From Sphingopyxis sp. (GTDB lineage: Bacteria; Pseudomonadota; Alphaproteobacteria; Sphingomonadales; Sphingomonadaceae), in contig PNNB01000001.1 in NCBI GenBank assembly GCA_013823985.1, forward strand, positions 128,739-192,738: a stretch of DNA of 64,000 nucleotides, given 5' to 3'. Both the position numbers and the translations under genes were made by a program. This document shows, piece by piece, positions 4,984-38,698 of this stretch; positions within the stretch are counted from its first letter, which is position 1; each line of letters opens with the position of its first letter. The notes beneath the pieces were generated by a model. That model saw only the letters and a program-made list of their open reading frames with translations. It ran no database searches and had not been told where the DNA came from.

Positions 4984-5856
4984 ATGTCTGAGGTGGCACC
5001 ATTAAGTTTTCAGGACCTGATCCTGACTCTCCATGATTATTGGGGCAAGCAGGGCTGCATCATTTTGCAGCCTTATGACATGCGCGTTGGGGCAGGGACG
5101 TTCCATCCCGCCACCACTTTAAGAGCTCTTGGTCCTGATAGCTGGAACGCTGCCTATGTGCAGCCGAGCCGTCGTCCCACCGACGGCCGCTATGGCGAGA
5201 ACCCAAACCGGCTGCAGCATTATTACCAATATCAGGTCATCATGAAGCCCAGCCCTGCCAATCTGCAGGAGCTGTATCTGGGCTCGCTCGACGCCATAGG
5301 CATTGACCCGCTGAAGCATGACATCCGCTTTGTCGAAGATGACTGGGAAAGCCCGACATTGGGGGCATGGGGTCTTGGCTGGGAAGTCTGGTGCGACGGT
5401 ATGGAAGTCACACAGTTTACCTATTTCCAGCAAATGGGCGGATTTGATTGCAAGCCTGTTGCGGGCGAACTGACCTACGGTTTGGAACGGCTTGCGATGT
5501 ATATCCAGGGCGTCGACAGCGTATACGACCTCAAATTCAACAATCATGGCGTCACCTATGGCGATGTGTTCCACAAGAATGAGGTGGAATTTTCGACCTA
5601 TAATTTCGAGGTCGCCGACACCGCCGCGCTGTTCGACGGTTTTGCAAAGGCTGAGGCCGAGTGCCAGCGGTGCATCGCGGCGAACATCCCGCTTGCGGCT
5701 TATGACCAGGCAATCGAAGCCAGCCATTTGTTCAACCTTTTGCAGGCCCGTGGCGTAATCTCCGTGCAGGAACGCGCCTCTTACATGGGCCGCGTCCGCG
5801 ATCTGGCCAAGGGTAGCTGTCAGGCGTGGATGGAAAAGAATGGATGGGCGGAATAA
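4984..5856 (+). CDS. glyQ: Glycine-tRNA ligase alpha subunit
   Basis: [32 protein letters not shown] and [12 protein letters not shown]. Confidence 0.99.
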
Positions 5857-7961
5857 TGGCCGACTTCCTTCTCGAACTCCTTTCCGAAGAAATCCCTGCG
5901 CGGATGCAGGCCAAGGCCAAGGAAGACCTTGCGCGCTTGTTTAATGAGGCGCTGACCAAGGCCGGCCTTGCCGCGCAGTCGGTCGAAACATTTGCGACAC
6001 CCCGCCGTCTGGCCCTGATCGCCAAGGGTCTGCCGCTTGCGACCGAAGCGGTTTCCGAAGAAACCAAAGGGCCGAAAGTCGGCGCACCGCCGCAGGCTAT
6101 GGAAGGATTCTTGCGTAAAACCGGCCTGGCGCAAGACCAGTTGGTGGAGCGCGACGGTATCTATTTCGCGATTGTCGAAAAGCCCGGGCGCAACACAGCC
6201 GATGTGTTGGGCGAGGCGATACCCGCGATCATCCGCGCTTTCCCTTGGCCAAAGTCGCAACGCTGGGGCGCGGCCTCGATATCGACCGAAAGCCTGCGCT
6301 GGGTCCGGCCATTGCAAGGCATCATCGCCTTGTTGGGGAACGATATCGTCCCTTGCGCTATAGACGGCATTGAAAGCGGCCGTCACACCATGGGGCACCG
6401 TTTCCATTCGAGCGGCCCAATCGAAATCGCAAACGCCGACGCCTATATCGAAGCGTTGCGGGCCGCCCATGTCATCGTCCATTTCTCCGAACGCTGCACC
6501 CTCATCCGTGATGGGGCCAAGGCTGCCGCGACCGCGGCAGGGCTGGTTCTGGTCGATGATGAAGGTCTCGTCGCCGAAAATGCAGGGCTGACCGAATGGC
6601 CGGTGCCAATGCTCGGCCGTTTCGACCCCGCCTTTCTGGAGGTTCCGCAAGAGGTTATCCAGTTGACGGCGCGGGTGAACCAGAAATATTTTGTTTGCCA
6701 CGACCGCGACGGCAAGCTTGCCAATGCATTTGTCTGCACCGCGAACATCGTCGCTAACGACGGTGGTGCGGCAATTGTTGCTGGCAATGAAAAGGTTTTG
6801 GCCGCGCGGCTTTCGGATGCGAAGTTCTTCTGGGAACAGGACCTGAAGGTTCCGCTTGATGAACAAGCCAAGAAACTGGCGCAGATTACCTTCCATGAAA
6901 AGCTGGGGACCGTTGCCGACAAGGTCGAGCGCGTTGCCAAGCTGGCGCGCTGGCTGGTGGAGGAAGGCATCGTCAAGGGCGCAAATGCTGACGACGCCGA
7001 ACGCGCGGCTCGTCTGTGCAAGGCTGATCTTGTGACCGGCATGGTCGGCGAGTTTCCCGAACTGCAGGGCCTGATGGGCGGATATTACGCCCGTGCGCAG
7101 GGCGAGACAAACGCCGTAGCCGATGCTGTGCGCGACCATTACAAACCGGTCGGGCAGGGCGATGATGTCCCCACCGCGCCGGTGACGGTGGCGGTGAGTT
7201 TGGCGGACAAGCTGGATACGTTGGTCGGGTTCTTCCAGTTTGATGAAAAGCCCACAGGATCCAAAGATCCCTTTGCGTTGCGCCGTGCCGCTATCGGTAT
7301 ATTATCGCTCATTCTGGATAATAATCTCCGGGTGTCGATGCGTGATTTGATAACAGCGGCTGCCCATGCCGGAGGGTCGAATGCCGGAATCGATGTCGCC
7401 AATTTTCTAATCGACAGGTTGAAAGTCCAGCAAAGGGAAGCAGGCATCCGGCATGACATGATCGACGCCGTTGTCTCGGTCACCGATAGGGGCGACAACG
7501 TTCTTATGGTCAAGCGCGTGAAAGCGCTTCAAGGCTTCGTCACAACCGACGAAGGCACAAACCTTCTCGCCGGATACAAGCGCGCGGCTAATATCTTGAA
7601 ACAATCGGGTGATGACCAAAGCACCCGTCACCCTGAACTTGTTTCAGGGTTTTATTCTGAAGAAGGCGAAGCAACTAAGATGCTGAAACAAGTTCAGCAT
7701 GACGGTGCAAGTGATGTCGAGATTGCACTCAAATCCGCCCTCGACACCGCCGAGCCCAAAGCCGACGCCGCTATCGATGCGGAGGATTTTGAAGGCGCAA
7801 TGACTGCTCTCGCCAGCTTGCGTGCGCCAATCGACGCCTTTTTCGAGGGCGTTATGGTCAACGATCCCGATCCGGCTGTTCGGGCTTTCCGTCTTGGCCT
7901 GCTCGCACGTTTCCGTGACGCCGTGCACCGCGTGGCCGATTTCTCGAAAATCGAAGGCTAG
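5856..7961 (+). CDS. glyS: Glycine-tRNA ligase beta subunit (carries an in-frame palindromic element)
   Basis: FLLELLSEEIPARM, ATPRRLAL, RWVRPL, EFPELQG.MG and GSKDPFALRR. ATG 5856 overlaps the glyQ stop (TAATG). Confidence 0.98.
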   Translation: MADFLLELLSEEIPARMQAKAKEDLARLFNEALTKAGLAAQSVETFATPRRLALIAKGLPLATEAVSEETKGPKVGAPPQAMEGFLRKTGLAQDQLVERDGIYFAIVEKPGRNTADVLGEAIPAIIRAFPWPKSQRWGAASISTESLRWVRPLQGIIALLGNDIVPCAIDGIESGRHTMGHRFHSSGPIEIANADAYIEALRAAHVIVHFSERCTLIRDGAKAAATAAGLVLVDDEGLVAENAGLTEWPVPMLGRFDPAFLEVPQEVIQLTARVNQKYFVCHDRDGKLANAFVCTANIVANDGGAAIVAGNEKVLAARLSDAKFFWEQDLKVPLDEQAKKLAQITFHEKLGTVADKVERVAKLARWLVEEGIVKGANADDAERAARLCKADLVTGMVGEFPELQGLMGGYYARAQGETNAVADAVRDHYKPVGQGDDVPTAPVTVAVSLADKLDTLVGFFQFDEKPTGSKDPFALRRAAIGILSLILDNNLRVSMRDLITAAAHAGGSNAGIDVANFLIDRLKVQQREAGIRHDMIDAVVSVTDRGDNVLMVKRVKALQGFVTTDEGTNLLAGYKRAANILKQSGDDQSTRHPELVSGFYSEEGEATKMLKQVQHDGASDVEIALKSALDTAEPKADAAIDAEDFEGAMTALASLRAPIDAFFEGVMVNDPDPAVRAFRLGLLARFRDAVHRVADFSKIEG
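7625..7705. repeat. CGTC-ended palindromic (REP/RPE-like) element inside glyS, 81 bp = 27 codons
   Basis: Left arm cgtcaccctgaacttgtttcagggt (7626-7650) and right arm tgctgaaacaagttcagcatgacg (7681-7704) are inverted. The left arm is identical over 25 nt to 38554-38578. Confidence 0.9.
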
Positions 7962-14178: not shown

Positions 14179-14253
14179 AAGTTGGTAAATAAGCTTGAAT
14201 TGCGGTCTGTAAGGTGACAGTCTCCTCCCCGGAGAGAACAGGGGAGAGCTGCC

Positions 14254-38553: not shown

Positions 38554-38698
38554 CGTCACCCTGAACTTGTTTCAGGGTCTATCTGTCAGCCCATTCCAAA
38601 CCGGTGAGTGACAAGTCTAGCCGTGACGCACGGTTGGGTTTTGATTCACGCCGTCGGGGCGGCTGTACGATGGACCCTGAAACAAGTTCAGGGTGACG
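38554..38698. repeat. Intergenic CGTC-ended palindromic element (perfect 26-bp terminal inverted repeats, 93-bp spacer)
   Basis: cgtcaccctgaacttgtttcagggtc (38554-38579) is the exact reverse complement of gaccctgaaacaagttcagggtgacg (38673-38698). Each arm is itself a hairpin. Confidence 0.95.

Follow-up and report, generated by a model that had tools for sequence, protein, structure and literature searches.

How did a palindromic DNA repeat come to be read as protein within an essential enzyme? The question is raised by the glyS gene in the 64,000-nucleotide stretch of Sphingopyxis sp. DNA analyzed here (hereafter the window), which codes for the beta subunit of glycine--tRNA ligase and which carries, in frame and toward its 3′ end, two short hairpin-forming units in inverted orientation. 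We consider it likely that this segment is a dimer of repetitive extragenic palindromes (REPs) of the CGTC-2 class, composed of gene-less hairpins of the Ssn type, that was inserted into a linker of the DALR anticodon-binding domain and is co-translated as a tolerated loop. The host gene and the parts of the element are arranged as follows.

5856-7961, plus strand: glyS, glycine--tRNA ligase beta subunit, host of the insert; 701 amino acids from ATG 5856
7626-7653, plus strand: left CGTC-2 unit, 28 nt, translated as RHPELVSGF; CGTC tag 7626-7629, stem ACCCTGAA 7630-7637, loop CTTGT 7638-7642, stem TTCAGGGT 7643-7650, tail TTT 7651-7653
7654-7676, plus strand: spacer between the units, translated as YSEEGEAT, variable among orthologues
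7677-7704, minus strand: right CGTC-2 unit, 28 nt, with the plus-strand reading K MLKQVQHD; tag 7704-7701, stem ATGCTGAA 7700-7693, loop 7692-7688, stem 7687-7680, tail CTT 7679-7677

The host gene is readily recognized. The product matches database cluster P0001 at 100% identity and its nearest relatives at 92%, and the name glycine--tRNA ligase subunit beta is carried by several GlyS relatives in Sphingorhabdus and other Sphingomonadales. Pfam family PF02092 is found on residues 4-540 (E=2e-190), and HMMER matches the protein to E. coli GlyS (7yse_C) with E=1.5e-113. The open reading frame (ORF) opens at GTG 5826 in the program-made listing; residues are counted here from ATG 5856. On this numbering the insert peptide RHPELVSGFYSEEGEATKMLKQVQHD comprises residues 591-616 and is encoded in frame by nucleotides 7626-7703, such that the protein reads ...YKRAANILKQSGDDQST RHPELVSGFYSEEGEATKMLKQVQHD GASDVEIALKSALDTAEP... 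across the site. An initial annotation of the window had described an 81-bp, 27-codon palindrome translated in frame within glyS. The in-frame palindrome stands, but the dimensions require adjustment: the element from CGTC to GACG spans 79 bp (7626-7704), to which the larger figure adds one paired base on each side, and the net gain over insert-free orthologues is 21 amino acids (701 versus 680). The gain is 21 rather than 27 because the original linker at the site was partly replaced.

Both units have a perfect 8-bp stem and a 5-nt loop, namely ACCCTGAA/CTTGT/TTCAGGGT on the left and ATGCTGAA/CTTGT/TTCAGCAT on the right. The left arm, CGTCACCCTGAACTTGTTTCAGGGT, covers 7626-7650 and the right arm, ATGCTGAAACAAGTTCAGCATGACG, covers 7680-7704, and a repeat search reports the pair as an inverted repeat (7625-7654 / 7676-7705) that is 83% complementary. 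Relative to the left arm, the right arm carries CC>TG and GG>CA changes that leave the 8-bp stem of each unit perfect, which agrees with the initial view that these changes are compensatory. As a single strand, a 101-nt region at the element folds best into one long hairpin, in which the differences between the stems create two 2-nt bubbles. The predicted energies are far better than those of shuffled sequences, both as RNA (-42.3 kcal/mol; z = -6.4) and as DNA (-23.5 kcal/mol; z = -5.7).

These features are those of a published class of repeats. CGTC-tagged REPs were defined by Di Nocera, De Gregorio and Rocco (2013, BMC Genomics 14:522; PMC3733652), who assigned an 8-bp stem and a 5-nt loop to CGTC-2 units, a 4-nt loop to CGTC-1 units, and 9-bp stems to CGTC-3 and CGTC-4 units. 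The tag is often TGTC, the 3-nt tail is near CCA, and the units occur mostly as inverted dimers with 20-100-bp spacers, CGTC-2 dimers being mainly heterodimers whose partners have different stems. These REPs are mostly intergenic, with a minority in frame within genes, and a dedicated transposase is not known (PMC3733652). Judged by its sequence, the glyS element is an inverted heterodimer of CGTC-2 class hairpins, and so the placement of the element within a described class of CGTC-tagged repeats, also made from the start, can be narrowed to that subclass.

The window contains a second copy of the repeat, which can be described in one line.

38554-38698 (145 bp), no strand assigned: intergenic sister copy, an inverted homodimer of two ACCCTGAA units with a 95-nt spacer, between unidirectional ORFs

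The window thus holds four units (two in glyS and two intergenic), all CGTC-tagged. A 24-mer from the left arm, GTCACCCTGAACTTGTTTCAGGGT, occurs exactly three times in the window (at 7627, at 38555, and at 38674 on the minus strand) and is matched nowhere in dinucleotide shuffles of the window. Over 25 nt the left arm is identical to the intergenic copy on the same strand, as had been noticed at the outset, and over 27 nt it is identical to the reverse complement of the intergenic right arm. The inverted arms of the sister copy are 38 nt long and 89% complementary by repeat search. This copy has no Rfam match at the gathering score, and permissive thresholds gave sub-threshold microRNA noise only; a literature search for the exact loop-core sequence also returned no match.

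To place the glyS copy within its family, one genome per species was scanned for the exact left-arm 24-mer, and the loci were then fetched. The 24-mer is present in at least 119 genome stretches, mostly from Sphingomonadales, which together with the intergenic copy confirms that the arm recurs outside glyS. Among the 264 units in the fetched loci, 203 carry the tag CGTC and 53 the tag TGTC. The commonest stems are ACCCTGAA (151 units, a count biased by choice, as this stem was the bait) and ATGCTGAA (73 units). When dimers with their tags outward are considered, 62 of the 95 are ACCCTGAA/ATGCTGAA heterodimers, as the published description states for CGTC-2 (PMC3733652), and the modal length is 91 bp. 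The two repeat subfamilies first suspected from the arms in glyS are therefore evident in the family at large. The two stem types appear normally to travel together, and the glyS copy has the sequence of a typical heterodimer whose spacer has been shortened. Its tails are TTT and CTT, compared with the CCA of 135 of the 264 family units and of both units in the orthologue designated L124. Three of the 95 fetched dimers lie inside long ORFs, and one of these overlaps a GIY-YIG gene on the opposite strand and is probably spurious. The unit sequences explain why few insertions within genes survive: the left unit of the glyS copy is free of stops in two of three frames and the right unit in one of three.

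An all-against-all clustering of the ORFs from the 119 fetched loci revealed a single recurrent neighbor with fixed geometry, which is a protein of about 100 amino acids with a GIY-YIG domain (PF01541, E=7e-17). Its gene is present in 7 of the 119 loci, two of them from Flavobacteriaceae; six have CGTC-2 units on both sides of the gene, and one (L092) has them only upstream. A transposase was considered as a recurrent neighbor and rejected, since the two largest ORF clusters are short-chain dehydrogenase/reductase (SDR) and response-regulator paralogues with no fixed position. In a reverse test, metagenome contigs were scanned with an alignment of the GIY-YIG proteins, and hairpins within 200 nt were recorded for the best 80 of 574 relatives. 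Of these 80, 72 have a CGTC-type hairpin on the 5′ side, 72 have one on the 3′ side, and 68 have both; the background density is 0.07 units per 230 bp. In the usual geometry, about 30-35 nt separate the end of a plus-strand unit from the start codon, and about 15-21 nt lie between the stop and the beginning of a minus-strand unit. Stem types shift with the divergence of the protein, such that divergent GIY-YIG proteins are flanked by Neisseria-like ATCCCCGC/GAAA units or by others. Close homologues are named from Sphingomonas and Sphingomicrobium, and GIY-YIG genes with CGTC-2 hairpins are seen in Alphaproteobacteria and Flavobacteriaceae (L034:2409-2811, L044:2576-3042, L086:179-584, L128-L207).

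The same kind of arrangement has been published as the NTS-ssnA-NTS architecture by Chenal et al. (2025, Nat Commun 16:2388; PMC11893778). In that work hairpins of this design are called Ssn-related motifs (SRM), and the Ssn proteins, cd10448-type nucleases with a single GIY-YIG domain, bind to such hairpins when the DNA is single-stranded (ssDNA), cut just upstream, and are flanked by their own hairpin variants. The authors count Sphingomonas among the repeat-rich genera and note a likeness to insertion sequences, and in Neisseria NTS hairpins placed around genes influence transformation by way of SsnA (PMC11893778). The published SRM search string, HGTCWYN(0-2)YYVSBRHN(0-5)WNVSBRGN(0-2)RNCYNB (PMC11893778), is a search aid and not a definition, and it matches a unit on at least one side in 9 of the 80 GIY-YIG loci. 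It misses hairpins of the CTGAA type, and surveys that use it would consequently under-count that subfamily. The link between hairpin and nuclease is known in kind, and this miss is a small addition to it. The sole match to the string in the window, at 14219-14252 (AGTCTCCTCCCCGGAGAGAACAGGGGAGAGCTGC), does not look like a CGTC-2 unit and probably arose by chance.

The history of the insertion can be approached by comparing the same site in relatives. Using an alignment of 23 GlyS orthologues (A1) and the DNA of eight of them, we distinguished the following states.

GlyS forms of 677-680 amino acids: no insert; linker GVDPNAAAPADLGSEE
Window, S. profundilacus IMCC26285 (L120), and the metagenomic lineages L124 and L125: the same dimer with the same left junction
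L126: right unit only; lowest four-fold divergence from the window, 0.29
L121: half of the right unit (GTTCAGCATGACG); among the closest relatives of the window
L122:3211-3405 and L127:2644-2838: a CGTC-1 dimer within a few nt of the CGTC-2 site; peptide VAPAQAGAH...GSSLRWSDG

The insert-free forms of 677-680 amino acids supply the empty state that an alignment with orthologues was expected to expose. Since the linker was partly replaced, an exact empty site or target duplication cannot be drawn, and all four dimer-bearing orthologues lack a target-site duplication around the element. In three of these four (the window, L120 and L125) the spacers are 29 nt long, homologous, and diverged at about 20-30% of positions, whereas the spacer of L124 is an unrelated 41 nt of the common 91-bp type. 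The tail of the left unit is TTT in the window and CTT or CCA in the orthologues, and a close relative in metagenomic run X9 has five substitutions and three small deletions in the spacer and intact arms. The CGTC-1 heterodimer of L122 and L127, which has the form CGTCGCCCCAGCGCAGGCTGGGGCCCA ... GGCTCCAGCCTACGCTGGAGCGACG, has left flanks similar to those of the CGTC-2 site (GATGAYAAAAAC), and its presence at the same linker would reflect either a hot spot or replacement of one repeat by another. Two joints in metagenomic runs that skip 31 nt were considered as excision joints and rejected, as they belong to other, shorter dimers.

When the GlyS cores are placed on a neighbor-joining tree, orthologues with the dimer are scattered, and those with single units or remnants cluster with the window. 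The simplest reading is that an old dimer in the clade of the window is being eroded by deletion; recombination or repeated colonization would explain the distant occurrences. One protein, P0018, has a core that groups with the clade of the window and an insert-free linker typical of a distant clade, a pattern that suggests recombination within the 3′ part of glyS.

Where does the added peptide lie in the enzyme? The DALR_1 domain (PF05746) spans residues 572-689 in P0001 (23.6 bits) and 572-670 in the insert-free P0010 (35.9 bits), which places the insert inside the anticodon-binding domain, after its first helix. In the HMMER alignment to E. coli GlyS (7yse_C), the insert stands opposite the segment SDEVLSDRVNASTLKEP, a loop between conserved blocks. 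From a full-length AlphaFold2 model made with 23 close orthologues we used the local C-terminal pattern alone, in which helices at 565-583 and 620-641 (pLDDT, the predicted local distance difference test score, of about 70-85) flank a stretch of unstructured coil at 584-619 (pLDDT below 50). The best-supported placement, which we hold with moderate strength, is that the insert would form a tolerated loop between two DALR-domain helices, and the loop of about 26 residues is probably disordered. The case bears on how well the anticodon-binding domain of GlyS tolerates insertions.

We propose the following course of events for the origin of the glyS copy. A complete unit consists of a hairpin, a GIY-YIG (ssn-like) nuclease gene of about 300 bp, and an inverted hairpin, of which the glyS copy would be the gene-less form, resembling a miniature transposable element with inverted repeats (MITE). 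Such elements might spread via ssDNA hairpin intermediates, with a cognate Ssn-type nuclease acting in trans. One of them would have landed in the linker between the two helices of the DALR anticodon-binding domain, where its survival would be owed to a length and phase that keep the frame open. Translated along with the enzyme, it would form a loop of about 26 residues, tolerated and presumably neutral for GlyS function.

The conservation of the arms is somewhat unexpected. When the four dimer-bearing orthologues are compared over a 2103-column glyS alignment, no other invariant run in the gene is as long as the arms themselves (7625-7650, 26 nt; 7680-7704, 25 nt), and such runs reach 20 nt at most in the conserved enzyme core. 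Four-fold sites differ among these orthologues at 0.44-0.52, third positions are invariant at 27% gene-wide, and the intervening spacer evolves about as fast as the gene as a whole. Choosing orthologues by recognizable peptide motifs does favor intact arms, but this bias is insufficient as an explanation given that about 17 third positions capable of synonymous change are invariant (0.27^17, or about 2e-10). The arms are thus held constant at the nucleotide level, and the cause may be either selection on the hairpin DNA or gene conversion from sister copies. One base beside the arms departs from this pattern. Position 7651 of the window, directly 3′ of the left stem, is T, and the corresponding base is C in all three orthologous copies and in the family consensus. 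The cytosine that follows the palindrome is the most important base for SsnA binding in the Neisseria NTS (PMC11893778).

Several observations weigh against the origin that we favor. A tblastn search of the 64-kb window found no ssn-like gene, and the SRM search string matches none of the four window units, while it does match a Neisseria-type NTS. For Ssn proteins, ssDNA cleavage and an effect on transformation have been reported, and transposition has never been demonstrated (PMC11893778). The T-for-C substitution in the left unit falls at the position critical for binding, and this unit may no longer be recognized. Moreover, we infer translation of the insert peptide from the open frame, and a search for sequencing runs with the locus yielded DNA runs only; the tryptic peptide predicted to cover it is HPELVSGSYSADGENTK in S. 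profundilacus IMCC26285 and HPELVSGFYSEEGEATK in the protein of the window. The surface loop envisioned in the initial annotation agrees with the local coil at 584-619 between helices, but the AlphaFold2 model of the whole protein is poor (mean pLDDT 44.7), and so the term 'surface loop' rests on local confidence and alignment.

Could the segment instead be an ancestral part of GlyS, or an artifact of assembly at contigs broken by repeats? Assemblies do break at the arms, and the linker is variable in all orthologues, so that no perfectly clean empty site exists. Both versions are nonetheless refuted by the results and retain practically no likelihood. The arm has identical counterparts in the intergenic copy of the window and in at least 119 stretches of unrelated genomes, GlyS forms of 677-680 amino acids do without the segment, and the isolate S. 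profundilacus IMCC26285 and independent metagenomes contain the same dimer in frame. Its arrangement on the 1.65-Mb contig of the isolate, together with independent spanning contigs such as one from run X1 that covers 7408-7702, excludes an assembly artifact. It is possible, although we are rather doubtful, that the Sphingorhabdus dimers represent repeated insertion, or replacement of one repeat by another, at a hot spot, and that the copies are young or have been overwritten by conversion. The scatter of the dimer state on the GlyS core tree, among insert-free, CGTC-1-bearing and other states, is what such turnover would produce, as are the unrelated 41-nt spacer of L124 next to the 29-nt spacer common to the window, L120 and L125, the nearby CGTC-1 dimers of L122 and L127 with their similar flanks (GATGAYAAAAAC), and the mosaic look of the glyS 3′ part (P0018). 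However, the spacers of the window, L120 and L125 are homologous and yet diverged, which points to common descent and age rather than to recent arrival. The left junction, too, is identical in all four dimer-bearing orthologues, and no empty-site or excision joint is seen in four metagenomic runs, whose contigs are weak evidence for absence.

The constancy of the arms invites a different interpretation, in which the hairpin pair is kept for use in glyS at the DNA or RNA level and is not merely tolerated. It might serve as an Ssn site that limits the replacement of segments by incoming DNA, as a topological or replication signal, or, in the mRNA, as a hairpin that adjusts the translation or stability of glyS. 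Arms that are invariant even at synonymous sites in four orthologues whose four-fold sites are about 0.5 different, a spacer that evolves freely between them, and folding of the 101-nt region far beyond that of shuffles (RNA z = -6.4; DNA z = -5.7) are all compatible with this idea, and the modulation of transformation by Neisseria NTS hairpins through SsnA offers a precedent (PMC11893778). We nevertheless judge it quite unlikely. The closest relatives (92-94% GlyS identity; P0002, P0003, P0004, P0006, P0009) have lost one unit or most of both and evidently manage without them, many lineages are insert-free and others have a different repeat class at the site, and the left unit in the window has T for C at the binding-critical position. 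Gene conversion from the many sister copies explains the invariance of the arms equally well. A related proposal is that the arms are actively kept at the family consensus, by homing-like conversion triggered by Ssn or by selection for a function of the DNA itself, for instance as an Ssn cut site governing segment recombination, and that the loop is a hot spot of recombination and turnover at which hairpin classes replace one another. This proposal seems unlikely as well. If it were true, it would explain the mosaic 3′ end of glyS in this clade and would make the locus a tractable natural case for the maintenance of CGTC/Ssn repeats. Arm invariance and the turnover of hairpin classes at one loop are the sole parts of our findings that go slightly beyond prior descriptions. 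We retain insertion of a gene-less CGTC-2 dimer, followed by tolerated co-translation, as the likely origin of the segment.

The wider distribution of the repeat is of some interest in its own right. Among the matches listed, the exact 24-nt arm is also found in Bacteroidota, Melainabacteria, Gastranaerophilales, Nitrospirota, Thermodesulfovibrionales, Dadabacteria, Elusimicrobiota, Spirochaetota and Caldiserica, and in a metagenome-assembled genome (MAG) of Magasanikbacteria, from the Candidate Phyla Radiation (CPR). Loci with the arm from distant phyla include L002, L008, L010, L012, L014, L021, L023, L027, L040, L070, L074 and L075. An arm common to such distant phyla implies horizontal spread or extreme constraint, and some of the MAG phylum labels on these loci may be binning errors. 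Metagenomes from drinking water, groundwater and freshwater contain the repeat in abundance, and their assemblies are fragmented by it: in metagenomic runs X1, X3, X6 and X9, the assembler word depth on the arms is 100-200x that of the flanks (window 7612-7707), and many contigs of these runs stop at the arms. In Pedobacter rhizosphaerae (L095:6831-7162), four 74-bp dimers are arranged head to tail with an 86-bp period, unlike the dispersed single dimers found elsewhere.

Homodimers of ACCCTGAA units with lengths of about 139-145 bp, like the intergenic sister copy, are present in the window, Sphingorhabdus, Novosphingobium and relatives, and S. profundilacus has two such long-spacer homodimers back to back (L048:410-553 / 659-802). 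A spacer conserved across genera in these dimers of about 140 bp was considered and ruled out, as the likeness is limited to the window and the S. profundilacus copy at L048:659-802.

In the Sphingorhabdus-like clade GlyS spans 677-830 amino acids, and alignment A1 has at least three further sites with lineage-specific inserts, at columns 303-328 (P0005), 424-475 (P0022, P0028, P0030, P0033, P0119) and 598-735 (many proteins). Several of these look like translated GC-rich palindromes (TPHPLAGGAGDG...PSPNPSRKREG and GGGGEADGGG...PPPRAGE). The GlyS protein of the window has one insert only. Its gene is preceded by the following neighbor.

4984-5856, plus strand: glyQ, alpha subunit; 290-aa ORF directly upstream, abutting glyS

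This adjacency indicates an ordinary glyQS operon, and PF02091 is found on the corresponding upstream neighbor in orthologous glyS loci.

The claim that a repeat family is adding peptide to a core enzyme, with which the initial annotation ended, is borne out by the dispersal of the family, by the insert-free orthologues, and by the in-frame position of the copy in an intact essential gene. As a natural experiment, the locus lets one orthologous copy be traced across lineages that are nearly saturated at synonymous sites, with arms identical, spacer drifting, and stepwise deletion in relatives. Orthologous copies within genes allow the age and constraint of CGTC/Ssn hairpins to be measured, which bears on what maintains, moves or homogenizes them (PMC3733652; PMC11893778). 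For annotation, the motifs RHPELVSG and MLKQVQHD are useful as marks of translated repeats, and should not be taken for domains.

How, then, does the glyS copy compare with systems already described? With the CGTC-2 REPs (PMC3733652) it shares the CGTC tag, an 8-bp stem beginning A-T, the 5-nt loop and the inverted heterodimer; it has 3-nt tails as well, but these read TTT and CTT in place of the consensus CCA. Additional file 3 of the same study lists a CGTC-2 unit translated as RHSELVSGS in Sulfurovum SUN_0512, a GTAG unit within glyS of Xanthomonas oryzae, and a CGTC-1 dimer within glyS of the sphingomonad Erythrobacter litoralis (ELI_05865, residues 398-423). The last of these is the nearest precedent, and it differs from the present case in genus, in the site within GlyS (here the DALR domain, residues 591-616), and in class, the dimer described here being CGTC-2.

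The NTS/SRM hairpins (PMC11893778) follow the same design of CGTCA, stem, loop, stem and C-rich tail. As in Ssn systems, units bracket in inverted orientation a gene for a single-domain GIY-YIG protein of about 100 amino acids, stems differ among divergent homologues, and gene-less copies are scattered and rarely intragenic (about 2% in N. meningitidis; 3 of 95 dimers here). The differences are that the SRM string fails on CTGAA-type units, that the window is without an ssn gene, and that the sphingomonad and Bacteroidota enzymes are putative nucleases for this hairpin.

The element has parallels in other in-frame and hairpin-based repeats as well. Rickettsia palindromic elements (RPE) likewise insert in frame into housekeeping genes and add a tolerated peptide, although sequence family and host differ, and RPE-1 is longer at about 100-150 bp. 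In-frame palindromic repeats in housekeeping genes were reportedly described under this name by Ogata and colleagues in 2000. The comparison with RPE drawn in the initial annotation was apt in function; the glyS element, a pair of 28-nt CGTC-2 units, is a relative and not itself an RPE. RPE-4 and RPE-6 have been equated with CGTC-4 and CGTC-1, respectively (PMC3733652). Similarly, the REPIN/RAYT system of GTAG REPs (REP doublets forming hairpins, and REP-associated tyrosine transposases; Bertels and Rainey, 2011; Nunvar et al., 2010; cited in PMC11893778 and PMC6006769) involves a dispersed inverted pair of REP hairpins and a small hairpin-flanked gene that is the presumed source of activity. 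It differs in that the tag here is CGTC rather than GTAG, and in that the gene codes for a GIY-YIG nuclease rather than a Y1 (HUH) transposase. Inverted ends are shared with classical MITEs, whose flanking direct duplication is absent in the four glyS orthologues. CGTC dimers within genes, one of them in a sphingomonad glyS, have been reported before, as has the association of such hairpins with a nuclease (PMC3733652; PMC11893778). The glyS case is thus a new example rather than a new phenomenon, and it adds another instance in which a selfish hairpin repeat has been absorbed into an essential protein as an extra loop.

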